Positions 4,901 through 49,957 of a DNA stretch of 64,000 nucleotides are shown in pieces (the first letter of the stretch is position 1; every line of letters begins with the position of its first letter). The position numbers were made by a program, and so were the translations under genes. The notes below the pieces were generated by a model, which ran no database searches, was not told the origin of the DNA, and saw only the letters and a list, made by a program, of their open reading frames with translations. The DNA lies in IMG/VR virus record IMGVR_UViG_3300034109_001012, one strand, 5' to 3'. The stretch is from a virus.

Positions 4901-6376
4901 CAATACGAAAAACAACGGTTTGGGGACGAGCAAACCCCATCCTGGGAGAAAAATCTATCCCCAATGGTTGAGTCAAGAATCACTCAAGTTGAGGATGCTG
5001 TTAAGAAGTTGGAAGCTATAGGTCAGGATTGGAATATAGGCTTCTTGGTTGATCTCGGTCAGAAGATTGACGATGGTGTTGATGCCACGGGAAAAGCTCT
5101 CAAGGTTAGGCGGTGGCTTGATGCTAACGGGCTTTCACCTGAAGATTTAACCTTATCACCAGGTACAGGCAGAAAGGTTGGTTATGAAGCCATTAGACAG
5201 TTGGCTGACGAAACCCTCAGACAGTACAACATTGTCCAGTCCAATATTAGATCCATTAAAAAAGATACCCAGTTTAAAGTATTTACCGAGAATGGATTAA
5301 TTGAGGAAGACAAGTTTTTAAAATGGGCAGAAGATCAAGCTGCATACTGGCAAAACCAAGTTAAAACATCAACATCCGATAATTGGCAGGGGTCAAGTTA
5401 CGAGCGAGTTGATAAGCTCTGGAAATCTTTGGATGGCAAAAAAGCCTCTGATGTTAAGGTCAGGGAATCTATCAAGCCCGATGATGTACAAGGTCAACTC
5501 AGAAAAACCATAGGTAAATATCAGGATTGGCAGCGTAAATACACGGTATTAAAGGAACAGGGGGAAGTAACGGGGAATGGAATTAGATCATTAAATGATG
5601 CTCAAAAGAAATTATTAAATGAGCAAAATATTCTATTAGAACAGCTTAATAGATATAACCTTGATAGCTCAAATCTAATTAGAGATAACGCAGATAACAC
5701 CATGCAAATATGGGAGAAGGTCAGACAAGATGCTGGTAAACCCGTATTCTTTGACGTGAAAGGGAAAGCCATTGAGAGGGGGGAACTATTTAAACAATTA
5801 GATGAGATTGAGAATAAATTAAAACAATCTCTAAACATGAGAGAAATCAAGATAGAACCATTAACTTATCAAGCCGATAAAGCATCGTTAATGATTAAAG
5901 ATCGGAACATCCTTAATCAAGCCTTGACTGAATTAGAGCCTAAGATAACTGAAATTCAACAACAGATTCAACAGCTTGCTACGGCTGGGAAAGGAACTAA
6001 AAAACTAGAAACTCAACTGAATAAGTTGCAGCTAGAGAAACAAATTAAACAACAGCAGTTGGGCGAGGTTATTCAAGATATTAGAGACTTGAGATTACCG
6101 CCATTACAGAATGAGAAAATCCAAATCCTCAAGGGTCAAATAGGAGAAACCCAGAAACAATTGACGGGAATTAAATCCGAAATAGCAACACTGCGACGGG
6201 AGATAACGGCACTCAAGGAACAGCCATTGGACGGGTCAGCATCGGGTATTAAACGTCAAAACAGACTCAATGCTTTGGAGGGTAGTATCACGCGGAAAAA
6301 TCAAGATTTGTTTAAGGTTGTTGGGGTATTGAATGATCAAAGGGGAGAATTAGGGAGGTTGAGAGCAGGGAGTTAA
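1943..6376 (+). CDS. Head morphogenesis (Mu gpF / SPP1 gp7-like) domain fused to a ~1100-aa coiled-coil extension
   Basis: ARTELTFAYNAGRL...RRCQVCEGRHG...PPMHVNCRCVL motif block at aa ~200-270; rest is heptad-rich K/E/Q/L sequence with an HhH-like segment. Confidence 0.7.
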   Translation: MFDSVFSPNPSAIFRAKTPDYVKPKSIKINLDRLENGGANTLTDAFSRVVSKALKDLDGAIKTKDSKAIENYQAVLIPELTKSIYGMWLGGWNIGRKHGDNEIKSQQKKGTNTANFDEDLLDAELASIENVPAQNAIANRSKTLASDISSTQWGKIRGHILSAIQPQSETGEPISRSELLKRINSELGDRGFKNRAEKIARTELTFAYNAGRLQTYKDSGLVSHVVFLSILDDRRCQVCEGRHGMMIDLNDIETVSANTPPMHVNCRCVLSPRLATPDNQQELDDQTQDSKKRRLFEAPPKWLAAGILAAILLSQKKVRVPGSGVATPGISIPSPVREAVERGLVDVALAAQIQKIAKATGEVQTAEQIRQRRKNQTESLPDQGVIEIQPRLVLNGVELNSATPEQIREGLKEFLPKKQLDDLINYLQENKISSIDDLLEVKGISRKSKAFKILQGLADKDKLRIELEKLTSPSELWLKNLGFSRSESKAIFDELKNKPSESWSDLKRRLKKRGISGDRIQRAIDKLKSIEAQEKRQVVGLDNSVPMVPDVTLDSPEIAVGKLIKQREIGLQRRREALQEIKDLGIELAKIRSDEKRFNVRLRRMNKRNPKEFVSPEEIRIKEIRYARVQAKIEQAQKKANAIGFQLERANLALNQLDIPNLTPAAKLRNQAVQNLGDEGSTLLDATNSLKAQISNEIDSQMSKGFIPPNKKIAGLEQANNRAKLITEPVSNLIEKTNLEDLRSKLTALQSHYQNLLDPLYPENFFGRDIQNDLTSLRAELKRVKTEIDDAVSLLKRTDQTLTATTNQTESILGKMGYLKTGAQLEKQAKELESQILNWENRVKKTRNYEQTYEPFSQIERQQPLDKLIQDATDIKTQVPKFKKELESRFRPGLNNAKSTISDIAIQTKKLEQLQKEIDGILTDTSKLPITKAQIPSSDVGTYNATVELRKISREITEEVKRLKALAGASRVNLDESLKSQNKTYQQYEKQRFGDEQTPSWEKNLSPMVESRITQVEDAVKKLEAIGQDWNIGFLVDLGQKIDDGVDATGKALKVRRWLDANGLSPEDLTLSPGTGRKVGYEAIRQLADETLRQYNIVQSNIRSIKKDTQFKVFTENGLIEEDKFLKWAEDQAAYWQNQVKTSTSDNWQGSSYERVDKLWKSLDGKKASDVKVRESIKPDDVQGQLRKTIGKYQDWQRKYTVLKEQGEVTGNGIRSLNDAQKKLLNEQNILLEQLNRYNLDSSNLIRDNADNTMQIWEKVRQDAGKPVFFDVKGKAIERGELFKQLDEIENKLKQSLNMREIKIEPLTYQADKASLMIKDRNILNQALTELEPKITEIQQQIQQLATAGKGTKKLETQLNKLQLEKQIKQQQLGEVIQDIRDLRLPPLQNEKIQILKGQIGETQKQLTGIKSEIATLRREITALKEQPLDGSASGIKRQNRLNALEGSITRKNQDLFKVVGVLNDQRGELGRLRAGS

Positions 6377-7546: not shown

Positions 7547-10500
7547 ATGTATCTAAAACTAGACATCCCTGAATTAAATCTAAATGTTAAACAGTCAGGG
7601 GCTTTTGGTTTGTCGCTAGGGAATCCAAATGGATTAAGTAAAGAAATATTAATTAAAGATGGTGTCTCTATTGTAGAAATAACTCCTACTGTCAACCCTG
7701 TCCTGATTATTCCCACACCTCAAAGCCAGAAGATTGTCTCGCTTGTTATTAATAATAAAATTTACCAATTATCAGAATCAGTAGAAGCAGAACAACTCGC
7801 ACCGGATGAATTTATTTATAATCCCTATGCTCAACAGGTAGCGATCGCTCAATATTCAGATCCAAAATATATTCAAGTCACTTCACCTACCAATCCCGTA
7901 ACCGTATCAATCCCAGGCTACAGCACCGCCACGAATGTTTATATCGGTGGGACTAGCCAGAATGCTGTTAGCTACACGGTCAAACCGCACGGAACACTTA
8001 TTGGAGATTTAGAACAAGGGCAAGCGGTTTACAACCCCGCATCCAATGAATTAATTTTTATTCCCGTTCAGTCTTTAGCCAAAACCATCACTACAGCCCC
8101 CCAAATTTTAGCTGTACAGATATCGGGAGTTAAGATAACAACACCTACTACCCCGATCAAGGTATCGGTTGTTAACAATACATCTAATATTGATTACGAC
8201 ACCGACTATATAGATAAGTTGCCAACGGTTTTACAATGGTTACCTTTGTTGGGTAACTTCAATTATTCGACATCCTTAGAACAATCTCAAAACGGAGAGA
8301 TGCGGTTCGAGACTTGGTTTAGTTATAAAAATTTAGTTTTGAAACATTTATGTCGGGGGGCAAAGTTTGAGGCATTCGGGATTGGGTGGCGAGTCGATGG
8401 ATTACAGATTAATGAAAAGATGAGATCAGAATTATCTCATCCAAAAATAGAGGTTTCAATTTCTCTGACCGATCCCCATTGGTGGCTCGATACAGAAGTC
8501 CCGCTGGTTCCCAGAAAGTACAAGGACGATCCATTGGGCGGATTGTCCCCTATTCTCTATTCTGGGGATTGGAAGATTTCTTATCACTATTCAGCAAGTA
8601 GTCCAGGGGTTGACCCTGAATGTTTAACCAACAGCCCATCACAACCCAAAGCCACATTAGCTGAATCGAGGACTTTAACATGGCTTTGCGGTCAAGCGGG
8701 GGGGATGTTATCAGGAATGGAAGGGGAAATACCAGTACCAAATGATGTGAGTCCAGAGGAAGGAAGGATACCCCGTAGTGAAATTCAATCAAGATTAAGA
8801 CAGAATAATTGTTTTTTGGATTTATCGGACTCTGATACTGTCTATTGCAAAAAATGGAACTCAACCAAGCAATGGCTATTACAAGAAACTGATATTTTAT
8901 CACCAATTTCTGTCAGTTGCTCCACTGGTAAGCAACGAAAACTTACACCTAACTCCGCATTCCAACAAGAAATTATTGTCGGGTTGCCAAACAATATCAC
9001 ACCCAAACAGACCATTACCTTAAAGAATGAGGATGTGACCAATATTTATGGAGCTTCTTATATATGGCCGAAGCAAGAAGTCACTGGAGAATTTCTTGAA
9101 AAGTCTCAGGAACAGGTAGAGGAAAACCAAGGGAATAGAGCGCCCACACTGCCAGAATACCGAATGAGACAGCGTAAGTATGAACAAAGGACAGAAGACC
9201 CCGACATCGCAAATACACCGCCCGATTCAGTTGATATCAATGATTTGTCGGTATCTTTTTGGAAGTCTGGGCAAAACTACGTCAAGGTTAAACGAGAGAT
9301 TAAAACTATTGATGGTTTTGAGTTTCAAGTTACCGAACAAAAATACGCTTTTAACGGGCCGTTAGCTAAAGATATTTATGAATATAGTCAAGGGGTTTGG
9401 AAGTTAAAGAAAGCTGATGTTAGAAGTTTTTGGGGATTGATAGAGGAAACCACAACTCAACACTTCTATAGCTCTGGATTCAGTGCCTACGAAGGGCTTT
9501 ATTTGGGATACGAAAAAAGTGGGTGGCGGTTTCATGTTTTCGCTACGGAACCAGAAATTAATATTTCGGATTCAGAAGCCGACCCAACGCTGCAATACCC
9601 TACACTCTCATCTCAACAGCAATACATAGACAAGGGGAGCGGAGCCACAAACGCAGACCTTCAGACTAAAGACCTAGCGAACAAAGCCTACACGCCCCAA
9701 CGCGTCCCTATTTTTGAGAAGGAAAAATATTACCATGAGCCGATGGAAAAATACTATAAAGACGCGGCGGTTCAGACTGTTGACGAGGTTAAATGGTGTA
9801 TGCCCGACGGGACAAGTCGCAGGTTGGCAGCGATAGATAAGACCTTCCAACAGCCCTATATTGTCACCGCTAGGGAGAAGGTTGTCAGAGGTTTGTCTTC
9901 AATGGAAGATCCTCGAAATCCTACGATTAGAGAATTTAATCAAAAGCGACCAGATGGGCAAAAGGAAAAACCAGAATTTCCCCCTCTGACAACCGGGACG
10001 GAATCATCAGAATCCTACAAGGTAAAAATCAATCGGAGCGTCAACACCCCTGGATATAGGAACACTGATGATTCCGAAAAGGATACTTTCACGGCTTACA
10101 CTCGGTCAGCATCAACAGGGGGGAATGGGTCAGGTTTTGGTTCTCAAATCTCAGAAAATAGGGTAGACGAAGTTGAAGGTAGACCGGAATCATCGAGGCG
10201 GCTTCCCCCTATTTGGGAGCGGGTAGAGGAGGAAAACCCTACCGAAACAGAGGAAAAGCAAAACCAATCCGATCCCAAGCGATACCGCTATAAAGTGTGG
10301 ACACCCTTAGCACCGGACAAAACACCTTTTGACCAATTAGTGTCGGGGTCAATGAGTTTTCCTTATGCCAAAACATTATCAGAGGTTAGAACGGCAATTA
10401 AAACCAATCTGGATATAGAAAACGCTCGCAACAGTTACACAGAAGGCTTCACTACTTTTTTTAATCCTTCAATGCGTCCGGGCGATCAGCTGACCTATTT

Positions 10501-10918: not shown

Positions 10919-13900
10919 TTACATCCGTCTCTTAGTCTCAATCATAATATTATCAAAAGCTTTTAATATTTCCTGCTCTAAATTTTTACCAACATCACCT
11001 GGGGATGTAACTGTTATTTTTACCCCCCCCACTTCCATCTTGACGTTGTTCTCTACGTTCTGAGCAGTTTGCTGAAACCGAGTGTACTCCGTCTGTCCAA
11101 TACTAAGACTTGGTGCGGAAGGTGTCCCCATCTGTAAGTCAGGAGAAACGGGGTCACTTAGTGCTTGTATTTTTTTGAATATCTCATCAAGGCGATCTGT
11201 TGGAACGTTTAACCCTTGAACTTCGGGCGGTTTTCCATAGTCAATATAAACAGAACCAGAGCGCCCTCTCATTGTCTCCTGATCTTTTCCATTAATTAAT
11301 CTGTTTAATTCCGATTGATCGCCCCGTTGGATTTGATCTAGGACGCTAGTATAGTTCCAGTCCGTGACCTTCTTACCGTAAACATCACTCAAGGCTTCGT
11401 TGATAATCTGTTGCTTTAATTGTGCCTGTTGTCTTCCCTCTGGCAGTGTGTTGGCTAGTTCAGACTTAGCTTGCATCCGGTCTAGCTTTTGCCTTTGGTC
11501 TAAATTCCTAATTTCCTGCTCTTGGGAAAAATCTAATAATTGAGACTGCAATGGTAAAAGCGATGCTTGCAAAGCTAATCCTTGTCCCGCCATTAACTTC
11601 GCCTCAAGATTCATTTGACCCGCAGCGATTTCTTCTGGTGTAGCTCCCGACGCTTCAAGTTTAGCTAAATCAGCTTGAGCCTGCGCTACCTCGGCTTTGT
11701 TTTGAGCCTGTTGCCCTTTTAATTTAAGAGCATCAATCTGTCCCTGAACTTTAGCTTGCTGTTGATTAAGAAGCAAAACCTCTCGCTCGGCTTTCTGTTG
11801 CTGATCTAACGCCTTTAATTTAATAGTGGCAGTTGATTGAGCCAGTACCTGTCTTTGTTTCTCATTGACGATCAACTGAGAAGCCAAACCCATTTCAGAG
11901 GTAACTATACCTAACCTGTCACTAAACGCCCGTTGTCTAGCTTCAAGTAACTGCTTTTGAAACCCAATAATTGTATTCTGTTTCTCTAAGGCAGAAGTCT
12001 GTTTATCGTATCCCTGTTGGATTTGTTGCTGACTTAAAACAAACGACTTGGTAACTTTATCAATCTGTTCTTGTATCAGTTTTTGCTTGGCTAATTTCTT
12101 TTCAATTTTGGCATTCTCTGATTCAATCTGTTGAGTTAGATTAACTCGTTTTTGCTCATTCTTATTTATTTCTCCCTGTTGGTTTACTTGTTGATTCGTT
12201 AAGTTTAGTTGTTGAGTAAGTGCTTCTGTACGTTGTTTATTGCCTTGAATCTGAAGTTTAATTGCCTCAATTTCTTCGGGTGATCTCTTTTGTTTAGTTG
12301 CCCTTTCTAGTTCAAATTTTAAGATTTGAGCCTGAGATTCTGCCTCAAGTTCTTGTAATTCAATTTGAGAAACTTGACGTTTTAAATCCAAATCCAGAAG
12401 TTTTTGACGGGTAGCCAAACTTTCTAATTCAGCTTTTTGAGTACGGACTAAATCAACTTCCCTTTCTTTAATTACTCTTAGTTCAACCTCAGCTTGTTTT
12501 AAAGGGTCGCGGGTTAACTTAGCTTGGTTCTGTAGCTGTGATTGCACATAACGCGATTCAGTATCAGCTAATTGATTCCTGCTACTGGTAATATTTTCTG
12601 TAAGTTGCGCTTGTTTTTGGAGTAAATCATACTCAGATTCTAAAGCCTGTTTTCTTAGATCCGCCCGTTGATTCTCATTCTCAAGTTGTTTTCTCTGGGT
12701 TTCAAAATCTAAATCTTTTAATCGGTTTTTTTCCTTGGCTTCAGCTTCTCTGATTTGGTTTCTAGTTTGTGCGTATTCATTCTCTAATTCAACATTTTTA
12801 ACCCCATTGGCTTTGAATTGATTAAGTTGTCTCTTTAATTCATTGGCTCTTAGTTTAAATTCTTTAATCTGTAAATCCGCCACCTTTGCTTGTGCATCTT
12901 CCTCTGATAAACCCCGTTCAGCTACCTGTGCAGAAATCAAGGTTTTCTCGGTATTCAACGCTTGAAGTTTTTGTTCTAATTGTTTCTGGATTAGCTTTTC
13001 CCGTGCGTTAAATTCAGCTTGTGCAATCTCAAGGTTTATCTGTTTAAGTTGATTCTCAAGGTCGATAACTTTGATTCCATATTGTAGACGAAGTTCAAGT
13101 TCTGACTCTAGTTGTTTCTTCTGTAAACCTAATTTTTCCTGTTGCAGTCCAGAGGTTCTTTTGATAACATCTTCCTCGGACGCTCGACGGAGTTGCCCTG
13201 CGGTTACTGTGGCAGAGGATTCTAACTCTATTTGGGAGATCCTTTCTGCCGTCGCTTGAGAGTTAAATTGGGCGATTTGACTGATTAGATTTTTCTGGGT
13301 GTCAATATCAAAGATAGAACCCTTAATCTGTCTTCCGTCTTTAGTTAAGGTAATGAATGATTCGTCCAAAACACTCTTAACTTTGTTGGCGACGTCACGA
13401 CTTTTTAATAAATTCCGGTCATAGTTTTGGAGGATTTGATCTAGTACCGCTTGCCCTTCAGTTCTTTGCTGTTGAACATCTTTTAAGAATACTTTACCCT
13501 CGTCAATATATTTTTCTTTAAACACTGAGAAGGCATCATCTAAAGCGTTATTACCCTCTAATGGGTTAACAGATGAAGCTACCACCGCCTGCTGTAATAC
13601 TGGTAGAGTCTCATTATAATATTTGGTGATTTGTTCCCTAGCTTGTTTTAACGCCTCTGTGCGTTTTTGAAGGTTATCTATTTGAGCTTGAGCAGCATCA
13701 AATTGATCGTTTAATTGTTGTTTTAATCCTGTATCTGTAGTCTCATCAAGTAGTTTTTGCCGTTCTTTTTGTTGGGATTGATAGCCCGATATTAAGAGTT
13801 CGTTGGCTTTGATTAAGTCGTTAGTTTCCTTATTCTCTTTTTCCAGAACAATGCCTTGAACTTGTGATCCTTTCAATGCTAATTTTCTGGCTTCTTCTGT

Positions 13901-16900
13901 TTGAAATAAACCAGCGTTAAGCTCTTTAGTCTGCTTAATTGTCTGAATTGTATTGTCACCAACATCTTTTAAAGTCTCATTCCTTAGTTTGGATTGCATT
14001 TTGATTAGGCGATCGCCTTCTCTGTTGGCGTTTGCTTCTGCAACAGTTGTTATACCTTTCTGTGGGTTGTAAAGGGTAGTCATAACCGCAGCGTTGAGAT
14101 TCCCTATAAAATTAGTAAACCGCCCCAAACCCTCTAGTGAGAAAATTTCCCCAATCCGATCCCCAATCCCTTTCTCAATTTCACCCGGTGCGCCTGCTCT
14201 AAAAGCCTCAATCTGATTTTGAAGTATTGATAATTCCTGAGCGGTGATTTTTCCATCTTCCCCGGCTTTCCGCATGGCTTTGGACATAGCTGTGAACTGT
14301 CCAGAGGTAAGATTGCCAGCTTCTTTTAATTCGTTTAATTTGTTTTTGAGGGGATCGAGTGCGTCCGCGTTTCCGGTGTTGGATTCCGATAGTGCAACTA
14401 AATTGGCTTTGAATGCCAACAAAGCCCCGTCCTTTCCAGATTCCTTCTCTAGTGCCTTGAGAGCTTTGGTCGTCTCATCAATGCCCTTACTGATAGCATT
14501 GGCTGTACCAAAACCAAATATATGAGCAATTTCTTTTCCTGCAAATACAAACGCCGCACCAATAGCCAACCCAATTGGAACAATAGGGCCAAGTGCCGTT
14601 AACGCTGCACCAGCTAACTCTGTTATTAATTCAAATCCTTCTTTAGCCCCTGCGTATACCGCCTTACCTGTTTTTTCCCCGACAAAACCAAGGGCTTGCC
14701 AGACTGTTAACCTCTCGTTTATTCCCGATAATCTTCTAGCCTCAGCAGCCCGTCTAGCGTCCCCTATACTCGCACCCCCGCGTCTTCTAGCCCGTTCCCT
14801 TAATTCGTCTCTAGTTGGCTTGCGTGGATCGTCAACTTCTGGATTGGATGCCATGAAGTCGCCAAAAGTTCCAACAGGTACCAGAGGCACCAGAGGCACC
14901 GGTCTTGGGATACCCGACACTTCTTGTTGATTTACCCGATCTGGTAATTGTTCAGGAAGACCAATTAATGATCGAAAACCTTTTTCTGCTTTAACTCCCG
15001 CAGATTCAACAGCCGCTCCTACACTTCCAAAAAATCCATCTAACGCCTTTTTAAATTCACTGGTCTGGCTGGAGACAGAGGTAACTAATTGGCGAGGAAG
15101 ATCCTTGAGTGATTCAAAAGTTTGCTTACTTTTTTTAGTTAAAATCTCCAGGGAATAAAAGCCAGCGTTTGAAATGGACGCTTGAAAAGATTTTATCTTA
15201 CTGGGTAAGCCTTGTAGACTTTCTGATACTTGTCCAAAACCAGTTTTTAAAGCGCCAAAAATAGATGTAAAAGTATTGACACTGATTATCTGTTTTAAGG
15301 TTTTAAATTGATTCGAGACTGCTGTTGTGGTTCGAGTTGATGCAGCCAAAAACTTAGCTTGAGCTTTTTCTATCAATGTAAAATCAGCAACATTGGCACT
15401 TCTTAAATTGCTGAAATAATCTTTTTGTTGTTCGGCAAATGACCTCCGCGATCTCACTATCTCGGATGATGATCCCAATCTTCTGTTAACTCCATCGGCG
15501 TTAGCACTTCTTAGATTTTCTAAATCTATAGGACTTGCTGTTTGCCGACCTCTGGCTAAATCAAAAATATTTTTCTGCTGAACAATTGTTTGCGACTGTT
15601 GGGCTTTTTTGAATCCAGGTATTTTATTGGCAATCAAATCTTTAAGGTTGCCAATGTAATTTTTTGTTTGTTTATTGAGATCGTTAAATAATTCTTTCTG
15701 TTTACCAAAAACAGCTGTTATCCCTTCAAATCCTTTGCTTAATTTATTCCCAATATTTAGATTTGAGAATATCCCGGCAAACTTAATTAATCCAGACTGA
15801 AGCCCAACAAAAGCTAGTTTAGCCTTATCCCCTAAAGCAGTAAATGACGCAGTGACTTTATTGATTGTAGACTGAAGAAATCCAAACCGACTAGACGCTT
15901 GAGATGCGGCTTCTCCTGATCCTAGTAGTGCGCGAGCTTGTTTCTGCTGTGATAAACTAAAGTCATCAACAGCAGCACTTTTGAGATTATTAAAATATTC
16001 TTCTTCCCTACCTTTAAAAGTTTTCTGAACTCTCGTTATCTCAGATGATGTTGGTAAAGACTTGATAGTTACATCGCCAGTGGCACTCTTAAGATTGTCG
16101 AGATATTTACTTTTTGCTATTTTGCTATTCTGTTGAATCTTTTCAATCTGACCAACTACTTCAGGCTGAACGCTTTGTGCTTTTCCTCTATCCTGAGCAT
16201 TCTGCCAGAAGTTTTTAAACCCTTCTACAGCTTTATCTTTTAATGTGAGAATATATAGCTTTAATCTCTGTATTAATCCTAGTAGTATTTCCTTCTGAGA
16301 ATTAAAGACACTGTTTAAATTCTCGAATCCTTTTGTTAAATTTATAGACTTAATAGTTTTACTGAGTTCTAAGATCCTTCCCCTGATACCAGTAACAGTT
16401 TTACCTATTCTGTCCCCAACTAAAGCAAATGTTGAACCAATCCCCAACGTAACAGACTGTAAAAGACCAGTCTTCTTGACACTATCCCCAACTAGACTTT
16501 GTGACTCGTAGAATTCTTTAGTTCGTGCCAATGCGCTTGTCTTATTGCCCAAGACGGCTAATTGTCCGCCTTTTGTTTCTCGTTCTTGGATTTTTTTCTT
16601 TCTGGCTTCCCTGCGTCTATCTAGTTCCGTTAATAGTTCCCATTGTCGCTCCTCTTTCTGAACCTCGATGTCAACTTCTGGTATTCGCTTAAAAGTATCT
16701 GGAGCGCTTGGTTTGTTCAGGGAATCTCGAAGTTTTTTCTCAAGTTCAGCCCGTTTTAGTTTTGGATCAATCCCTGGAGTCTCTATAGGACTATCTGGGA
16801 CGCTTGGGATGTTTTTCTCAAGTTCAGCCCGTCGCCTTGCTGCATAAGCCTCTACCTGTTGATCCATTTCCAAAGGTTGAGAACCCTTCACTTTATCTAC

Positions 16901-18844
16901 ACCACTACCCAAAACGTCTTTCAACCCTGAGTAATACTTCTGGGTAGTTTCTGCTAATTTCTTAATAGCTTCTTTCTGTCCTGTAAATTTCTCGGTAATT
17001 TCTTCTATTTTCTTCCCAACCGTTGTACTTCTAATTGTTTCAGCGAAACCAAGAAATCCAGATTTAGCCCCTTTAATTGCTTCTGTTTTTCCTGCTATTG
17101 CTAACTTATGGCTTTGATCTATCCCGATCATCTGTTTGATAACCGATCTATAGCCCTTTTTCTGTATAATTAATTCTTTAATAATTCCGATCTGTTTTCC
17201 GAGTTGACCGGACAATGCTAAACTAATAACTCTTAATAATGCCAGATTAGTAATAACCGGAACGATAGCACCGACTAACTGTTTAAACGCTATTCCTGCG
17301 GAATTAACTTGAATTTTAAATAACAAATAAGAAGCAATCGCTTTCTTTACGGGGTCGGGAATATTGGCAATAAATTTACTTAATTTTTCTAAATAAGCAA
17401 GTCCGGGTTCAAATACGGGGGCGAGGGATTCTCCTAACTGAATGATAGTTTCTTCAAATCGGTTGGCTATCTTTTGAAACCTAGAAATCCTGTCATCTGT
17501 AGCAGTTTTAGCAACTTCATCTAAACTCTGAGCATTGGCATTAGCTTTGATTGCTGCGGTGACATTCTTGTAATCCTGTCCTTTGTTGGAACTTAACCCT
17601 AAAGCAGTCCGATAAGCTAAAGTGTCGGGAAGAATTTGAGCTAATTTAGTTTGATCTCCCCCTGTTGCCTCAAAAACATCTTGAATTGATTTTGCTAACC
17701 CTTTCTCCTGAACTTCTCTAATATCAAATCGAATTCTTTTCCCTTCTGAATCTCGAAGTTTGGCGATCTCTTTTGCAGCTTCGGGTGTCTTATCAATAAT
17801 ACTTCTAGCTAACGCCTGAATACCTGTTAATGCCACTGGTGTTGATGTACCCTGGGCGGTTAAAACAGAGGTAGCCGCGGCTAAATCTTCAATGCTAATT
17901 CCTGCTGTTTTAGCAACTTGAGAAGCTTGTCCGAAAGTTTGGGATAATTCCTGAATCGTTGTAATCCCATTCTCTACCGTACCGTTTAAGATTGCGCTGA
18001 CACGGGTAGCTTGAGACGCTTCTAATCCATAGGCTCGGAGGGTTTTTGTCAACAACTGAAGGGTAGCAGTAGGATCAACGGCTTGACCACCAGCACCCGC
18101 AATTCCGATTAATTTTAGACCGGGTTCTAGTACCTGTTGAGATGATTTAGTATCTGTAAACCCCCCAGATAGAACTTCGTATTGTCCTAATAATGCTTCT
18201 GTTGTTGTAACTGAATTGTCTAATTTATCTCTTAGTAACGATTGAATTTGTTTTCTGTTTTTATTTAAGTCTGTAGCCGTTGCTCGTTTAGCCGTACCCG
18301 ATTCGGTAAATTCAGTGGAGGATTTGAGGATGGTTCCCACACGGGCGGACGCACTCTCAACGGCGTTTAACTTAGCGACGGCTACCTGAGCAAAACTTTC
18401 TACTGCTACCTGACTCCCTGATATGGCATCCCTCAACGTCATAAACCCCTGAATGGAATCAGTGCTTACCCCTGAACGTTGCATCTGTTCTAATGTCTCA
18501 GGAATGCGTTTTAAAGATACATAGGCATCACTCGCACCCTTAGCTAAGAGTGTAAATTGTTGAGCATAAAAAGCAATATTAGAAGCCTTGCCGATAATAG
18601 TGGAAAGCTCAGTATTTAAACTGATAACTTTCCGCATATTTCTGGCAAAATCATCGGCATTCTTAGCCCCAATAACAAGGGCAGAGGTGGAGGATCTTAA
18701 CCCTTTTTCAAGGAATGGTAAAGCCATACCCGTAGCCGTTAAGCCGATCTGCATATAGGTTAACTGTGTCGAGATATTCCCAACACCTTTAGCAAAACCA
18801 TCGTCAATCAGACCTAGTTTTAAACTCGCGCCTTGTTCTACCAT
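10919..18844 (-). CDS. Tail tape measure protein (2641 aa)
   Basis: N-terminal TMP core (ILNGTVENGITTIQELSQTFGQASQVAKTAGISIEDLAAATSVLTAQG), very long coiled coils, located after tube/chaperone genes. Confidence 0.85.
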   Translation of the reverse strand: MVEQGASLKLGLIDDGFAKGVGNISTQLTYMQIGLTATGMALPFLEKGLRSSTSALVIGAKNADDFARNMRKVISLNTELSTIIGKASNIAFYAQQFTLLAKGASDAYVSLKRIPETLEQMQRSGVSTDSIQGFMTLRDAISGSQVAVESFAQVAVAKLNAVESASARVGTILKSSTEFTESGTAKRATATDLNKNRKQIQSLLRDKLDNSVTTTEALLGQYEVLSGGFTDTKSSQQVLEPGLKLIGIAGAGGQAVDPTATLQLLTKTLRAYGLEASQATRVSAILNGTVENGITTIQELSQTFGQASQVAKTAGISIEDLAAATSVLTAQGTSTPVALTGIQALARSIIDKTPEAAKEIAKLRDSEGKRIRFDIREVQEKGLAKSIQDVFEATGGDQTKLAQILPDTLAYRTALGLSSNKGQDYKNVTAAIKANANAQSLDEVAKTATDDRISRFQKIANRFEETIIQLGESLAPVFEPGLAYLEKLSKFIANIPDPVKKAIASYLLFKIQVNSAGIAFKQLVGAIVPVITNLALLRVISLALSGQLGKQIGIIKELIIQKKGYRSVIKQMIGIDQSHKLAIAGKTEAIKGAKSGFLGFAETIRSTTVGKKIEEITEKFTGQKEAIKKLAETTQKYYSGLKDVLGSGVDKVKGSQPLEMDQQVEAYAARRRAELEKNIPSVPDSPIETPGIDPKLKRAELEKKLRDSLNKPSAPDTFKRIPEVDIEVQKEERQWELLTELDRRREARKKKIQERETKGGQLAVLGNKTSALARTKEFYESQSLVGDSVKKTGLLQSVTLGIGSTFALVGDRIGKTVTGIRGRILELSKTIKSINLTKGFENLNSVFNSQKEILLGLIQRLKLYILTLKDKAVEGFKNFWQNAQDRGKAQSVQPEVVGQIEKIQQNSKIAKSKYLDNLKSATGDVTIKSLPTSSEITRVQKTFKGREEEYFNNLKSAAVDDFSLSQQKQARALLGSGEAASQASSRFGFLQSTINKVTASFTALGDKAKLAFVGLQSGLIKFAGIFSNLNIGNKLSKGFEGITAVFGKQKELFNDLNKQTKNYIGNLKDLIANKIPGFKKAQQSQTIVQQKNIFDLARGRQTASPIDLENLRSANADGVNRRLGSSSEIVRSRRSFAEQQKDYFSNLRSANVADFTLIEKAQAKFLAASTRTTTAVSNQFKTLKQIISVNTFTSIFGALKTGFGQVSESLQGLPSKIKSFQASISNAGFYSLEILTKKSKQTFESLKDLPRQLVTSVSSQTSEFKKALDGFFGSVGAAVESAGVKAEKGFRSLIGLPEQLPDRVNQQEVSGIPRPVPLVPLVPVGTFGDFMASNPEVDDPRKPTRDELRERARRRGGASIGDARRAAEARRLSGINERLTVWQALGFVGEKTGKAVYAGAKEGFELITELAGAALTALGPIVPIGLAIGAAFVFAGKEIAHIFGFGTANAISKGIDETTKALKALEKESGKDGALLAFKANLVALSESNTGNADALDPLKNKLNELKEAGNLTSGQFTAMSKAMRKAGEDGKITAQELSILQNQIEAFRAGAPGEIEKGIGDRIGEIFSLEGLGRFTNFIGNLNAAVMTTLYNPQKGITTVAEANANREGDRLIKMQSKLRNETLKDVGDNTIQTIKQTKELNAGLFQTEEARKLALKGSQVQGIVLEKENKETNDLIKANELLISGYQSQQKERQKLLDETTDTGLKQQLNDQFDAAQAQIDNLQKRTEALKQAREQITKYYNETLPVLQQAVVASSVNPLEGNNALDDAFSVFKEKYIDEGKVFLKDVQQQRTEGQAVLDQILQNYDRNLLKSRDVANKVKSVLDESFITLTKDGRQIKGSIFDIDTQKNLISQIAQFNSQATAERISQIELESSATVTAGQLRRASEEDVIKRTSGLQQEKLGLQKKQLESELELRLQYGIKVIDLENQLKQINLEIAQAEFNAREKLIQKQLEQKLQALNTEKTLISAQVAERGLSEEDAQAKVADLQIKEFKLRANELKRQLNQFKANGVKNVELENEYAQTRNQIREAEAKEKNRLKDLDFETQRKQLENENQRADLRKQALESEYDLLQKQAQLTENITSSRNQLADTESRYVQSQLQNQAKLTRDPLKQAEVELRVIKEREVDLVRTQKAELESLATRQKLLDLDLKRQVSQIELQELEAESQAQILKFELERATKQKRSPEEIEAIKLQIQGNKQRTEALTQQLNLTNQQVNQQGEINKNEQKRVNLTQQIESENAKIEKKLAKQKLIQEQIDKVTKSFVLSQQQIQQGYDKQTSALEKQNTIIGFQKQLLEARQRAFSDRLGIVTSEMGLASQLIVNEKQRQVLAQSTATIKLKALDQQQKAEREVLLLNQQQAKVQGQIDALKLKGQQAQNKAEVAQAQADLAKLEASGATPEEIAAGQMNLEAKLMAGQGLALQASLLPLQSQLLDFSQEQEIRNLDQRQKLDRMQAKSELANTLPEGRQQAQLKQQIINEALSDVYGKKVTDWNYTSVLDQIQRGDQSELNRLINGKDQETMRGRSGSVYIDYGKPPEVQGLNVPTDRLDEIFKKIQALSDPVSPDLQMGTPSAPSLSIGQTEYTRFQQTAQNVENNVKMEVGGVKITVTSPGDVGKNLEQEILKAFDNIMIETKRRM

Positions 18845-44496: not shown

Positions 44497-44694
44497 TCAA
44501 CCCCCTCCCCCGACTTTTTTGTAAAGAATTATATCGCCACGGGTGATCGCCTCCAGAAATTCTGTCCATGCGGGTTCCGCCGACTCCTGCCTCCAATACC
44601 GATAACCCATGCCAACAACTAGGGCTTTCAACTTCTCCCTATCTTCTGGCTTGAGTCTAGCTTTGATTTCTTGCCTGTGTTCGTGGGGTCTCAT
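44497..44694 (-). CDS. Small protein downstream of integrase (possible excision/regulatory factor)
   Basis: 65-aa basic ORF; position only. Confidence 0.35.
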   Translation of the reverse strand: MRPHEHRQEIKARLKPEDREKLKALVVGMGYRYWRQESAEPAWTEFLEAITRGDIILYKKVGGGG

Positions 44695-46768: not shown

Positions 46769-47377
46769 TCAATTAAATCGTCTGTTTTGACCCTGCTGAT
46801 TGCAACAGGCAACGATCCCTGCTTTGTCAATCCTCAATAATCTGAGGATTGATTTTTTGCGGGTAAGAATTTCTTTAAATTCCGATTGGTCAAAATCGGA
46901 ATACCAAGGTTGGCACTCGTCAATCAAGGTATGTAATTTCTTTAAAACCTGGGTCATATTTTCCCAGGCGATTTTTTCGCAAAAATCGCGGTTTTCGATC
47001 CAGAACTTCGCGGAGACCGCAATCCCCACCGCTTTTTTAATTCTGATTTCTCCTTCCCCCGGCTCCCCACCGAGAGAAGAATAATATTCAGCAAAATCAC
47101 GGCGGAGTTTATCCGCCCACTGAATTTGTTTTTCCGACCCCACAAGGGGAGGGAAAAACCAGTCAATTTTTTGTCCTGGCATATCCCAAATTGTTAACTG
47201 TTTTGGAGTCTCTACAACCGCCACCGCTTTCAGGGATTCCAACCGCCCCTCTAAAACAGTCAATTCAAAAGCCCACTTCCGAATTAGGTTTCGGACGCGG
47301 GGGAACTTGCTAATCAAGCTATTTAGTTGAGCGATTCTTTTAGAAAGTTGAGTGACAGTGGTTGTGGAGTTTTTCAT
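46769..47377 (-). CDS. Hypothetical protein
   Basis: 202-aa ORF. Confidence 0.45.
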   Translation of the reverse strand: MKNSTTTVTQLSKRIAQLNSLISKFPRVRNLIRKWAFELTVLEGRLESLKAVAVVETPKQLTIWDMPGQKIDWFFPPLVGSEKQIQWADKLRRDFAEYYSSLGGEPGEGEIRIKKAVGIAVSAKFWIENRDFCEKIAWENMTQVLKKLHTLIDECQPWYSDFDQSEFKEILTRKKSILRLLRIDKAGIVACCNQQGQNRRFN

Positions 47378-47561
47378 ATTCAGCCCGATTTATCGGCGGC
47401 GACCCTGTTTTGTTTGTAAAGTGCCGTCTTTCCGGCTGCCAGCCCACCCCCGCTTTCAAAGTTCGATCTTTTCAGTTTGCTACTTCTTTGGGTGATTTTC
47501 GCTTCAGTAGCCTAGCCATACAAAATCTTGTACACTTAATTTATACTCCCAATTTTAAAAT

Positions 47562-47717
47562 ATGTCAACCCCTAGAAAGAAAAAACTTTTTAAACCCAGA
47601 ATCAAGCTACAGGTATGGCTTTCAGAGATTGAGAGGGAAAGGCTAGAGGCGATCGCATCCTCAAGAAATCTATCCCTCTCGGAATTGGTCAGATATTGGA
47701 TTAATAATGGAGGGTGA
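47562..47717 (+). CDS. Ribbon-helix-helix protein (51 aa, not in ORF track)
   Basis: MSTPRKKKLFKPRIKLQVWLSEIERERLEAIASSRNLSLSELVRYWINNGG: classic RHH beta-strand plus two helices; convergent with iscB. Confidence 0.55.
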   Translation: MSTPRKKKLFKPRIKLQVWLSEIERERLEAIASSRNLSLSELVRYWINNGG

Positions 47718-47734
47718 CGATCACTCCATCTTGA

Positions 47735-47921
47735 GTATCAAGTCAGTCAAGAAACAAGGCAATCATTAACGGCTGATCAGATATTCGATATCGGTGAAGT
47801 TGCAATCATGTATCAAATTAGTCAAGAAACAAGGCAATCATTAACTTCGTGACAAAAATTTGAAGTATCAAGTTAGTCAAAAACCAACACAATTGTTAAC
47901 GAACCAATACAATCATTAAAC
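47735..47921 (+). repeat. Three 36-bp direct repeats plus a half repeat (GTATCAAGTCAGTCAAGAAACAAGGCAATCATTAAC)
   Basis: Copies at 47735-47770, 47810-47845 (34/36), 47865-47900 (29/36), half copy 47901-47921 overlapping the iscB stop; gaps of 39, 19 and 0 nt. Confidence 0.85.
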
Positions 47922-49202
47922 AACACATTCGAGGCTCGAATAGGCATAACCATCAGCTTTCTGGAGTGGTTTCATGTATTTTGGATGAACACCATCTATC
48001 TTGTTTAAGGCAAATTTTGGAATTTGCCGGATCGCAATTCGACCATAATGGGTTCCCTTATTCTTTCCAGATGGAATCACAGCCTTAACATAATCCCCTG
48101 TTTTATACCCCATAAAACTCTTAATTCTTGCTTTATGGCATTTAGGAAAACCATACTTATCGGTTGTGACCCGTTGCCTTACCCCATGCCCTTTAGCTGA
48201 TATTAATAAAGGTTTAACATCCTTAATAATCAGATTTTCGGGAGTAGAAGCACCAACGCAAGCCGCGTCAATCCAGTGAGCTTTAGGGAATTTTTGACGG
48301 CATCGGTTAAACTTAGTCCGTCCCCCCGTCCCAACTTCTACAGGTAAGCCAGTCTCCTTCAATCGGTTGTACAAACACCACCGAGTAGAGTTAACGGCGG
48401 CTGCATCTTTGAGAGGGGCTTTAACCCGTTTCAGGATTTTATTAAGCAATTCCTTCTTTTTAGAAAGGAAATCTTTAATGTCCTTAGCACCCTTTTTTTG
48501 ATTGCATTTATGGCAAGCGATCGCCAAATTAGAAACCCGATTACTCCCCCCTTTGGATCTGGGTATCAAGTGTTCAATCTCTAATCTGGTATCAACAGCG
48601 CCACAGTAAACGCATTGACGGTCAAACTTCTCCAAAAGGTATTCCCGAACTTCATACCCCGCTAACTCCCCTTGCTGATACTCGACACCGGAAACTTCTG
48701 GATTCTCCATAATTTGAGTGTCGAACCGTACCAACTCTTGAGATATCGCAGAAATAGGAGCTAACTTTCTTAACCGATTAACCCAAGTGATCACATTTTC
48801 AACCCGTGACATTAGACTCGGAGCTAACCAACCCTTAACCCGTGTGCGATTAAGAAAACGGGGTTGGCGGTATCTGGTTTTTCTACCTCGGCGACCCCTT
48901 CTTAAACTGCGTCGGGATTCCAGTGCATTCTTGATCACCATGCCACGATGTTGAATATCGGCGCCCCAAACAACTTCACCCGTGCCGTCGTTTACCAAGG
49001 CAATGCCAGTAAATTTAGAACCAGGATCTATCTTTAGCCTCAAATCTTCAGTTGAAGATTTGAGAGCATATTTTAGGATGATTGTAAAAGGTTGATGCCG
49101 AAAAACTGCGGCTTTCTTTTGAGTTAAAAGAATCCTAGCTTTTGCGGGTGAGATTGGATTTAATGGACGCTTTTCGGTATCCATCACAAATACTTTAGAC
49201 AT
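47916..49202 (-). CDS. iscB: IscB-type RNA-guided endonuclease (OMEGA system; RuvC with inserted HNH)
   Basis: PLMP-like KRPLNP, RuvC-I LKIDPGSKFTGIAL, Arg-rich bridge RRSLRRGRRGRKTRYRQPRF, RuvC-II ISQELVRFD, HNH CVYCG..EIEHLIPRSKGGSNRVSNLAIACHKCNQKKG, RuvC-III HWIDAACVG. Confidence 0.9.
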   Translation of the reverse strand: MSKVFVMDTEKRPLNPISPAKARILLTQKKAAVFRHQPFTIILKYALKSSTEDLRLKIDPGSKFTGIALVNDGTGEVVWGADIQHRGMVIKNALESRRSLRRGRRGRKTRYRQPRFLNRTRVKGWLAPSLMSRVENVITWVNRLRKLAPISAISQELVRFDTQIMENPEVSGVEYQQGELAGYEVREYLLEKFDRQCVYCGAVDTRLEIEHLIPRSKGGSNRVSNLAIACHKCNQKKGAKDIKDFLSKKKELLNKILKRVKAPLKDAAAVNSTRWCLYNRLKETGLPVEVGTGGRTKFNRCRQKFPKAHWIDAACVGASTPENLIIKDVKPLLISAKGHGVRQRVTTDKYGFPKCHKARIKSFMGYKTGDYVKAVIPSGKNKGTHYGRIAIRQIPKFALNKIDGVHPKYMKPLQKADGYAYSSLECVV

Positions 49203-49455
49203 TTAAAAATAACTCTTTCGAGCCTCCGATAAATCGGGTAATGTGTGCCTCGTCAATGTTATTGGGCGGTACTATCTAAGTGACACTGACTTAATTGCTG
49301 TACATCTGTTTAATCACTTAGTTATAGAGCTTGGAACTGGCAACGCATCCCAAGGTATGAACTTAAACACTTCCCAATAACGTAGCTCAGTAAAGAGCTT
49401 AGACTGGTTAACTATTTACCAACAAACTACATTGGTAAACCTTGATTCTTGACTG
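49203..49455 (-). ncRNA. Candidate omega RNA (guide-like 5' end plus structured scaffold) upstream of iscB
   Basis: ~250-nt gene-free leader with nested helices: 49415-22/49432-39; 49258-66/49373-81; 49276-83/49314-21; 49384-88/49395-99; 49226-37; GAAA tetraloop 49213-22. Confidence 0.6.
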
Positions 49456-49460
49456 TTTTC

Positions 49461-49466
49461 ATTATA
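49461..49466 (-). promoter_or_regulatory. -10 box TATAAT for the candidate omega RNA / iscB transcript
   Basis: Perfect TATAAT on the minus strand, 6 nt before the guide-like 16-mer; overlaps a 10-bp A/T-rich inverted repeat (49466-49501). Confidence 0.4.
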
Positions 49467-49513
49467 CACAAATAACGCAAAAAAAACAAGTTTATTTGTG
49501 TATTTTTAAAAGG

Positions 49514-49957
49514 TCAAGAGCAAAAGCAATCGTCAACCTTGATAACTTCGATCTCGACACAAAGGGCTTTTAATCGCTCATAAGCCACCACCGGATCGGC
49601 TTCAAAATCAACCGGACTAGATCCGTCCATCGGCAAGTCTGACACCGCCCCCAATGGCTCATAAGCCCTTGATTTATTATTCCAAAAAAATACTCGGTTA
49701 ATATGTCGCTCTGCTGCTTCGGGGGTTTCCAAGAAACAATAGATCAACCCCGTAACAATTGCCTGCCGGACATCTGTTCTGAATCGCCGTTTGTCGAGCT
49801 TGACTGTCCACAATTCGGTCAATAGTTCCTCGTCGGTGGCAGCGTCGTACCAGAGACACTCACAAGAGAATGTGTGGAGGTCGTTGGCATGAATTTTTTG
49901 GGCGGGTTGAAATCCTTTTTTAGCGGGTTTGGTTTTGGCTTTAGTTGATGTTTTCAT
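49514..49957 (-). CDS. Hypothetical protein
   Basis: 147-aa ORF downstream of the C5 methyltransferase gene. Confidence 0.45.
   Translation of the reverse strand: MKTSTKAKTKPAKKGFQPAQKIHANDLHTFSCECLWYDAATDEELLTELWTVKLDKRRFRTDVRQAIVTGLIYCFLETPEAAERHINRVFFWNNKSRAYEPLGAVSDLPMDGSSPVDFEADPVVAYERLKALCVEIEVIKVDDCFCS

Follow-up and report, generated by a model that had tools for sequence, protein, structure and literature searches.

Why should the predicted first sixteen nucleotides of the RNA that accompanies an IscB nuclease recur in a row of repeats on the other side of the iscB gene? This question is raised by the IMG/VR record IMGVR_UViG_3300034109_001012, a PaV-LD-like Planktothrix cyanophage, of which a stretch of 64,000 nucleotides (the window) was analysed. 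On its minus strand, iscB (47916-49202) encodes a protein of 428 amino acids with RRXRR/RuvC and HNH domains, and upstream of the gene lies a HEARO/omega RNA scaffold (49238-49455), which matches Rfam RF02033 over the full model (49453-49238; 126.9 bits against a gathering score of 83). The 16-mer at the predicted 5' end of this RNA (CAGTCAAGAATCAAGG; 49440-49455, minus strand) has copies on the plus strand at 47744-47759 (15/16), 47819-47834 (14/16) and 47874-47889 (11/16), each inside a 36-nt direct repeat. A first-pass annotation of the sequence had taken the 16-mer for a guide and considered the copies to be self protospacers, partners in a repeat:anti-repeat duplex or operators of an adjacent RHH protein. 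The sequences and coordinates that it gave for the 16-mer, the TATAAT box, the neighbouring hairpin and the three copies were all correct on recheck, and so was its view that the match exceeds chance: with up to two mismatches the 16-mer has three matches in the 64-kb window against 0.04 expected, and none of 100 shuffles reaches three.

We consider it very probable that the locus 47709-49537 is a phage-borne, CRISPR-associated IscB system working with two RNAs. Judging by sequence, the 16-mer appears to be an anti-repeat and not a guide, and the omega RNA appears to pair with transcripts of the array as a trans-activating CRISPR RNA (tracrRNA) does with a CRISPR RNA (crRNA). The omega RNA also appears to possess neither a guide nor a 5' helix strand of its own, both of which would come in trans from the crRNAs.

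The repeats beside iscB and their targets

Three repeats of 36 nt stand on the minus strand directly beyond iscB: R1 (47735-47770), at the far end of the array beside an RHH-like gene, R2 (47810-47845) and the degenerate R3 (47865-47900; GTTAACAATTGTGTTGGTTTTTGACTAACTTGATAC in the iscB sense). They enclose, on the same strand, spacers of 39 nt (47771-47809) and 19 nt (47846-47864; TTCAAATTTTTGTCACGAA in the iscB sense), for the latter of which no target was found. These three repeats had been recognised in the first-pass annotation, and two more copies had been missed, namely a truncated repeat (47897-47921, minus strand; GTTTAATGATTGTATTGGTTCG) that overlaps the iscB stop codon, and a degenerate repeat-like copy (49502-49537, minus strand; GTTGACGATTGCTTTTGCTCTTGACC...) upstream of the RNA gene. 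A repeat-pattern search of the window returned five matches against 0.03 expected. If an array is taken as at least three direct repeats of 23-50 nt, the window holds one, with its three repeats, the truncated one and the two spacers.

The same 36-nt repeat was found in at least 13 related phage contigs, in 10-20 copies directly downstream of iscB and behind a 98-nt leader. The array adjoins iscB in all of these loci, including the 83%-identical L083 in another genomic context, and the leader, which extends from the iscB stop codon to the first repeat, is kept in L041, L042, L048, L051 and L083. Repeats nearest to iscB are identical and those at the far end are variant or degenerate; the sister arrays of L042 and L048 differ in their spacers at the iscB-near end, and the near-identical phages L043 and L051 have almost no spacers in common. 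Spacers of the relatives are unique and 34-56 nt long, mostly 34-40 nt, and 95 distinct ones were collected. The repeat is unstructured in both senses, as are tracrRNA-dependent repeats; neither the Rfam CRISPR-DR families nor the PLSDB plasmids gave a match to it. Contigs without iscB retain only 2-3 repeats.

Read against these relatives, the three repeats beside the window iscB are evidently the stump of a real CRISPR array. The truncated repeat marks a deletion, ending inside a repeat, that removed the 3' end of iscB, the 98-nt leader and most of the array; similar deletions are present in L043 and L050. Because the 3' end of iscB is fused to a repeat, the window protein terminates in …SSLECVV, compared with …SSLEPL..SSSS in relatives. 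The window copy of the system, which has two spacers, lacks the leader and encodes an IscB with a changed C-terminus, is a deletion remnant that may be weak or inactive.

Protospacers, defined by at least 75% identity, were found for 30 of the 95 distinct spacers in Planktothrix agardhii plasmids or in the plasmid-like contigs L085, L101 and L102. The 39-nt spacer of the window is among the 30, matching L101 at 2560-2598 (33/39) with the 3' flank GTGT (G at +3). Direct matches to plasmids comprise 38/38 (NZ_LR882936), 37/37 (NZ_LR882940) and 37/38 (NZ_LR882956, in a DUF3987 gene), and five more spacers match NZ_LR882964 in or beside its CyRepA1 replication gene. The P. agardhii plasmids matched are p2 of strain NIVA-CYA126/8, p2 of No.2A, p4 of No.976 and p1 of No.66. 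On the 3' side of the protospacers, in the iscB sense, G stands at +3 in 27/30 cases (p = 4e-16 at a background G frequency of 0.203) and at +4 in 22/30 (p = 6e-10), and no motif was seen in the 5' flank of the 30 protospacers. The adjacent motif is therefore 3' NNGG. From its position it follows that the transcribed strand of the array is the iscB strand, and it fits an effector of IscB/Cas9 type. Transcription of the array from the plus strand, which would make the repeats resemble the 5' end of the omega RNA, is ruled out by array polarity, the leader and 3' NNGG. The mismatch profile along the spacers is flat and thus gives no evidence on which 16 nt serve as guide.

It should be added that L085 (Ga0208223_1000735) is a chimeric assembly, in which a plasmid-like target and a phage array are joined via an identical 40-nt spacer/protospacer (7606-7758). 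The body of this contig is a different element, holding protospacers for seven spacers from five arrays. Homologues of its helicase led to L101 (21.6 kb) and L102; a protein-pattern scan of IMG/VR with the same helicase found nothing. L102, a contig of a P. agardhii assembly, encodes a Prim-Pol/DUF3987 protein and a superfamily 2 (SF2) helicase and is 70-76% identical to several P. agardhii plasmids.

When the first 68 spacers were compared with INPHARED phages, the sole match was that of spacer L042_sp02, in PaV-LD. The motif ATAAA, taken from this first protospacer (flank CATAAAAA) and reported for KraIscB-1 (PMC11610941), was dropped after the 30 protospacers had given NNGG, L042_sp02 being a self-match without that motif. 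Spacer 2 of the L042 and L044 arrays matches its own genome perfectly (L082 7618-7654; L077 7515-7551), and the window has the site at 44655-44691 on the plus strand (34/37). The site lies downstream of the integrase gene, at a distance of about 50 nt, and is antisense to the opening codons of a small open reading frame (ORF), the homologue of PaV-LD ORF019R; the CAT of its 3' flank is complementary to the start codon of this ORF. The lack of NNGG may explain why the self-match is tolerated, and the spacer may have an antisense or regulatory role.

Other observations concern the array ends. In L041, L048, L050 and L059 the far end (e.g. L048 5391-6193) carries, beyond the regular array, extra repeats at intervals of 242, 105 and about 347 nt, the last of the series being degenerate (…CTTGACTGAAGATGCAC). 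In L055 (3001-3256) just 74 codons of iscB are left, joined to the terminal repeat. Within the 39-nt spacer of the window, 16 nt (47774-47789) agree at 14/16 with a segment from the 3' end of the RHH-like gene (TGGTCAGATATTGGAT; 47686-47701), and in relatives a 20-nt segment akin to this one precedes the terminal repeat.

Pairing of the repeat with the omega RNA

The RNA gene is preceded by a -10 box, TATAAT (49461-49466, minus strand), with 5 nt between the box and the 16-mer and 6 nt between the box and AGTCAAG. Both the TAnAAT box and the 6-nt distance are kept while the intervening bases differ (TACAAT-GTAAAT-AGTCAAG in the L041 type, TACAAT-AATTTA-AGTCAAG in L083), so that the 5' end of the omega RNA is probably at or next to the anti-repeat; on promoter position, the RNA probably begins at the anti-repeat itself. 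Directly abutting the 16-mer is a hairpin of 8 bp with a 9-nt loop (49415-49439, minus strand; TTTACCAA-TGTAGTTTG-TTGGTAAA, arms UUUACCAA/UUGGUAAA), and L083 has a hairpin at the same place (UCUGCUGA/UCGGUAGA) with two compensatory pairs.

What the scaffold appears to lack is a strand of its first helix. In ordinary relatives (L001, L002, L008 and L053) it opens with GUCAAC, which pairs with the GUUGAC that immediately precedes the conserved CCAG. In the solved OgeuIscB complex, the guide is followed without a gap by a guide adaptor hairpin, which the authors regard as equivalent to the repeat:anti-repeat duplex of Cas9 (PMC9640706). In the window the 3' strand of this first HEARO helix is GUUAAC (49407-49412, minus strand), and its perfect partner is found in nt 1-6 of the repeat (GUUAAU/GUUAAC). 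Within the 16-mer, GUCAAG pairs poorly with GUUAAC, and cmscan flags non-standard pairs at model positions 3 and 6-8. With the RNA ends as predicted, the cis 5' strand is missing from the omega RNA, which would thus not hold a guide and a guide-adaptor helix in one molecule, and the earlier designation of the 16-mer as a guide is not supported, for want of a cis helix strand between it and the scaffold. The Rfam alignment taken at face value, which places HEARO position 1 at GUCA (49453), was set aside owing to the non-standard pairs in the helix and to the choice by the model of an inserted GUUAAC in L050.

Complementarity to the 16-mer extends over nt 12-27 of the iscB-sense repeat, with 15/16 Watson-Crick pairs for R1 and 14/16 for R2. 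RNAduplex analysis of the iscB-sense repeat against the omega RNA 5' region predicts both proposed helices at -25.3 kcal/mol; 1000 shuffled repeats gave -12.9 +/- 2.9 (minimum -23.6, none reaching the observed value) and the opposite-sense repeat -13.1. For L083 the duplex has -26.5 against -11.8 +/- 3.0, with 0/1000 shuffles reaching it. The comparison of guide and repeats across related phages, which the first-pass annotation had named as a check, was run and backs the pairing. Among 19 distinct repeat/omega rows, L083 included, 95.6% of cells are paired, compared with 21-54% when the partners are slid. The rows have a covariation score of 0.095 and shuffles one of 0.080 (0/500 reach the observed value), with the reservation, which tells against the duplex, that the compared sequences are close relatives, so that shuffle controls overstate significance. 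Pair 27/42 is seen as A-U, G-C and G-U, and pair 12/57 as C-G, U-G and U-A. One-sided changes are nearly all G-U wobbles, workable only in iscB-sense RNAs; the majority repeat of the relatives differs from the 16-mer at 2-5 positions, mostly in a G-U-compatible manner. Complementarity, covariation and 3' NNGG together argue for a separate RNA of tracrRNA type. The idea of a repeat:anti-repeat duplex with the array transcribed in the iscB direction, one of the three first offered, therefore seems to have been essentially right, as polarity, the NNGG motif, the duplex energy and covariation all agree with it.

The following mechanism is proposed. The repeats would be transcribed in the iscB direction, in intact relatives from the leader just after the iscB stop codon; in the window, where the leader is deleted, transcription of the array would occur only by read-through. 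Each crRNA would consist of a spacer followed by a repeat. Repeat nt 1-6 (GUUAAU/C) would pair with GUUAAC of the omega RNA (49412-49407), rebuilding in trans the helix that adjoins the guide, and nt 12-27 would pair with the 16-mer (49455-49440), the resulting 16-bp helix replacing the first inner HEARO hairpin. The omega RNA, starting at the anti-repeat, would act as tracrRNA, and the crRNA would supply the guide, the 5' strand of the adaptor helix and one strand of the 16-bp helix. Since the array lies downstream of iscB, at least 1.5 kb from the anti-repeat, pairing must be in trans or of very long range; with the array beyond the gene and the cis adaptor strand removed, a trans duplex would be required by design. 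The duplex would probably be processed by host RNase III, and loaded IscB would then cleave DNA in which a match to the repeat-proximal part of the spacer is followed by NNGG on the 3' side. The natural targets would be P. agardhii plasmids, the phage turning the system against plasmids resident in its host.

Possible intermediates are present among the relatives. In L050 (IMGVR_UViG_3300044974_001223, about 1589-1612) the omega RNA contains 13 extra bases (GTTAACGATTGCA), which, together with the four bases that follow, reproduce nt 1-17 of the repeat of this phage, and cmscan puts the scaffold start (HEARO position 1) there. The insertion gives a cis GUUAAC:GUUAAC helix, so that L050 could be a single-RNA form of the same system; omega RNAs of the window type are without these 13 bases. 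Several of the relatives that have no iscB (L059, L062, L069, L073, L079 and L088) have lost iscB together with the scaffold, and in them the anti-repeat plus TTTACCA abuts a full repeat. They share with L050 the junction TTTACCA/GTTAAC, followed by a complete repeat, and L059 carries a spacer that is also present in L041. Such genomes look like products of a deletion between the scaffold-fused repeat and a repeat of the array. A series from L050 through the window type to the derivatives without iscB can be proposed from this handful of genomes.

Several points weigh against a system of two RNAs. The 5' end of the omega RNA, the transcription of the array and the processing are all predicted, and a second promoter-like site, TTGACC-17-TAAACT (49517-49489), could start the RNA some 27 nt further upstream. 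The trans helix is short (6 bp), and five of its six pairs never vary and thus provide no covariation evidence; in the 16-bp helix, mismatches are frequent at two pairs (13/56 in 12/19 rows and 17/52 in 8/19 rows). Spacers of 34-40 nt are far longer than the approximately 16 nt used by IscB. One spacer of the L042 array matches its own genome perfectly, though at a site without NNGG, and the array of the window itself has no leader and only two spacers. Finally, cas1 and cas2 were not found among the nine non-PaV-LD ORFs and the RHH-like ORF scanned, which leaves spacer turnover without explanation.

Alternative explanations

The last of these points speaks for the likeliest alternative, by which the phages carry a mini-array that borrows Cas proteins of the host, IscB and its omega RNA being an unrelated selfish neighbour nuclease and the 16-mer match a recombination scar. 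Type I systems have a 5' protospacer-adjacent motif (PAM) and type III systems have none; the 3' NNGG motif, in the sense co-directional with iscB, is what would be expected of IscB or Cas9. The length of the spacers (34-40 nt) is nearer to cyanobacterial class 1 arrays than to the 30 nt of type II, but the repeat is unstructured and without a match among Rfam CRISPR-DR families and PLSDB plasmids. Deletions and recombination among the repeats do occur often at the locus, yet the repeat supplies exactly the 5' helix strand that the omega RNA has lost in cis, anti-repeat and repeat covary, the array stands beside iscB in each of the 13 or more loci, including the 83% relative elsewhere in genome context, and arrays collapse where iscB is lost. 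Although no cas1 or cas2 was seen in the phage ORFs scanned and cyanophage arrays without cas genes are known (PMC4916379), we regard this explanation as clearly improbable.

The 16-mer may alternatively be the guide of the omega RNA, with the repeats as near-cognate self targets, whether decoys, regulatory sites or relics of homing. Its position at the promoter-predicted RNA 5' end, its length, which is that of an IscB guide, and the 15/16 and 14/16 matches to the repeats speak for this reading. An IscB guide, however, is followed at once by the adaptor helix (PMC9640706; relatives likewise), and between the 16-mer and the hairpin the sole partner for GUUAAC is GUCAA, with a C-A mismatch and pairs flagged by cmscan. 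Furthermore, the DNA after the copies reads CAAT and not NNGG, the repeats separate unique spacers that match plasmids, and their G-U-compatible differences fit RNA-RNA pairing and not recognition of target DNA. A guide with self protospacers or decoys is on these grounds very improbable.

Scarcely credible is a role of the inverted 16-23-nt copies flanking iscB as recombination sites for guide switching by inversion, or of the repeats as operators or iterons for the RHH-like protein: the inverted repeats I1 and I2 do have 23-nt arms (83% complementary), an integrase gene lies 2 kb away and the neighbouring ORF gives a weak RHH (NikA-like) signal (E = 0.0028, below the Pfam cut-off), but the array is downstream of iscB in the same relative orientation in all loci examined, with no inverted isoform and with deletions between direct copies as the only rearrangements observed, and relatives hold up to 20 copies with unique, plasmid-derived spacers, unlike operators or iterons.

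Known systems, genomic setting and significance

The effector of the two-RNA system proposed here is an IscB by its domains. Pfam recognises RRXRR (1.7e-72) and HNH_5/HNH/HNH_4 in the window protein; its alignment retains the catalytic motifs, i.e. the RuvC-I Asp (KIDPGS), HNH and RuvC-III, and its best relatives of solved structure are IscBs. Beyond the group of 95-97% identity, the closest relative found in the searches is that of L083 at 83%, followed at <=66% by ordinary cyanobacterial IscBs. With 428 amino acids and no REC lobe it does not qualify as a Cas9, which exceeds about 700 amino acids.

In L083 (ENA ERZ18242340 NODE_14260), Gly replaces the catalytic Asp of RuvC-I (KIGPGS), which may denote a nickase or a sequencing variant. 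The L083 iscB locus adjoins a TnpB gene in a genomic context different from that of the other loci, and a lone repeat-like copy lies upstream of the omega promoter (features at 1308-2747, about 2790 and 3114-4412). A motif of about 40 nt (CTACCGGGGTTCGACTCGGAAAG...) occurs three times in this contig, at about 2760, 5240 and 5880.

To transposon-type IscB (OMEGA, RF02033) the locus is tied by its RRXRR and HNH protein, by the RNA family and by the RNA gene directly upstream of the ORF. Ordinary members hold the guide and GUCAAC...GUUGAC in one RNA, whereas the phage type has lost the guide and the 5' strand and L050 keeps a cis-fused repeat fragment; no transposon context was seen among the ORFs scanned.

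With type II Cas9 it shares the gene order (tracr-like RNA, nuclease, array), the 36-nt unstructured repeat, an anti-repeat at the 5' end of the trans RNA, crRNAs of spacer then repeat, the G-rich 3' motif (NNGG), and a leader at the array end with identical repeats and sister-specific spacers. It differs in the 428-amino-acid IscB without REC lobe, the HEARO scaffold of about 215 nt, spacers of 34-40 nt instead of about 30, and a three-way junction (6-bp helix, 16-bp helix, hairpin) in place of a single duplex; cas1, cas2 and csn2 were not found among the ORFs scanned.

The first-pass statement that no IscB locus with an adjacent array is known has to be corrected, since Altae-Tran et al. 2021 had already reported IscBs associated with CRISPR (summarised in PMC11610941) and DelIscB is described in PMC12660989. 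The DelIscB array precedes the ORF, within a single non-coding RNA (ncRNA) with repeat and anti-repeat, and according to its authors it is unknown whether this ncRNA is split in two (PMC12660989). Common to such systems and the phage family are an effector of about 430-460 amino acids beside an array, the lack of nearby adaptation genes, repeat and anti-repeat parts of the ncRNA just after the guide, and a 3' target-adjacent motif. In the phage family, too, iscB adjoins an array and an anti-repeat lies in the ncRNA, but no locus of the family has the array upstream and in the same ncRNA. The repeat and anti-repeat of DelIscB can form a cis hairpin, whereas the phage array is downstream of iscB and outside the scaffold ncRNA; the phage system is moreover phage-borne, with plasmid targets and NNGG readable from the data, DelIscB being compared by its description and not by sequence. 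CRISPR-associated IscB is thus already known, and what differs here is the downstream array, the pairing in trans, the carriage by phages and the identifiable targets. In the literature searched, which did not extend to Altae-Tran et al. 2021, we found no description of this phage IscB-array family.

An architecture matching the DelIscB-like one was observed in L054 (IMGVR_UViG_3300035208_002778; 2426-2606, 2607-3000), where three 36-nt repeats in the same orientation stand upstream of the omega RNA of another IscB (49% identical). The first bases of the repeat are GUUACA, and the conserved CCAG is preceded by UGUAAC; the Rfam HEARO model scores below its gathering score at this locus. The L054 duplex (-20.3 kcal/mol) is not distinguishable from shuffles (-14.0 +/- 2.8, minimum -23.2), and this unrelated upstream-array locus is therefore an architectural comparison only.

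A further comparison is offered by cyanophage vB_AphaS-CL131, which has a type V-U2 locus with a TnpB-like effector and an array, one spacer of which matches a cyanobacterial DNA primase pseudogene (PMC6293099). It is likewise a minimal cyanophage array beside a transposon-derived RNA-guided nuclease, without adaptation genes, and the phage IscB arrays also match primase and replication genes. That locus belongs to the TnpB/Cas12 and not to the IscB/Cas9 lineage, no tracr-like RNA was identified there and the direction of its array is unresolved; it is a loose precedent.

As for the setting, the window is a mosaic: its right half (about 33-64 kb) is 80-98% protein-identical to PaV-LD, and the left half (1-33000) is a structural module that is unrelated to PaV-LD and contains no PaV-LD homologues. 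PaV-LD has the flanking genes without the iscB locus, and the segment 47709-49527, containing promoter, HEARO/omega RNA, iscB and repeats, stands in place of PaV-LD ORF012R. The right-hand end of PaV-LD homology (49528) falls inside the degenerate copy at 49502-49537, which overlaps the 3' end of the ORF 49514-49957 and the -35-like TTGACC. In relatives from IMG/VR and JGI metagenomes, IscB is 95-97% and the upstream region 89-100% identical, and the locus is syntenic and not scattered. TnpA was not found among 10 ORFs scanned in the window, transposon ends not being searched for; the same nine non-PaV-LD ORFs of the right half and the RHH-like ORF gave no Pfam match to Cas1, Cas2 or Cas4, with structural-module ORFs left out of the scan.

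The left half also contains giant ORFs (10919-18844, 2641 amino acids; 1943-6376, 1477 amino acids), and the right half (33000-64000) encodes an integrase, a methylase, a helicase and others. A 17-nt inverted repeat, 94% complementary and built around the small palindrome CCGATTTATCGG, occurs at 47384-47400, upstream of the ORF 46769-47377 and also in PaV-LD, and at 49222-49238, where the HEARO match has its 3' end and the iscB start codon follows closely; this is perhaps a shared hairpin of a 5' untranslated region or a terminator.

How the single omega RNA of IscB became the crRNA and tracrRNA of Cas9 is an open question in the field. The copy in the window is decayed, yet it led to a family that bears on the origin of the two RNAs of Cas9, and, as sister genomes keep the cis-fused form, the transition from cis to trans can be tested with few constructs. 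A nuclease of 428-432 amino acids with the simple motif NNGG and a separable crRNA may also be of interest as a compact editor. It is possible, though we advance it tentatively and at slightly less than even confidence, that in a cyanophage lineage a transposon-type IscB and its omega RNA evolved independently into a CRISPR system with two RNAs like that of Cas9, the steps of which are still visible in living relatives (L050 cis-fused, the window type trans-dependent, deletion derivatives without iscB), with plasmid-aimed arrays of fast turnover and no phage cas1/cas2. If so, spacers would be gained via borrowed adaptation machinery of the host or an unknown acquisition route, and the family would be a natural replay, in a small and dissectable system, of the split of omega RNA into tracrRNA and crRNA that has been proposed for the origin of Cas9. 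Natural targets, here P. agardhii plasmids and often their replication genes, together with a motif read from 30 protospacers, are rare for systems of IscB type, and they indicate a conflict of phage versus plasmid in a bloom-forming cyanobacterium.

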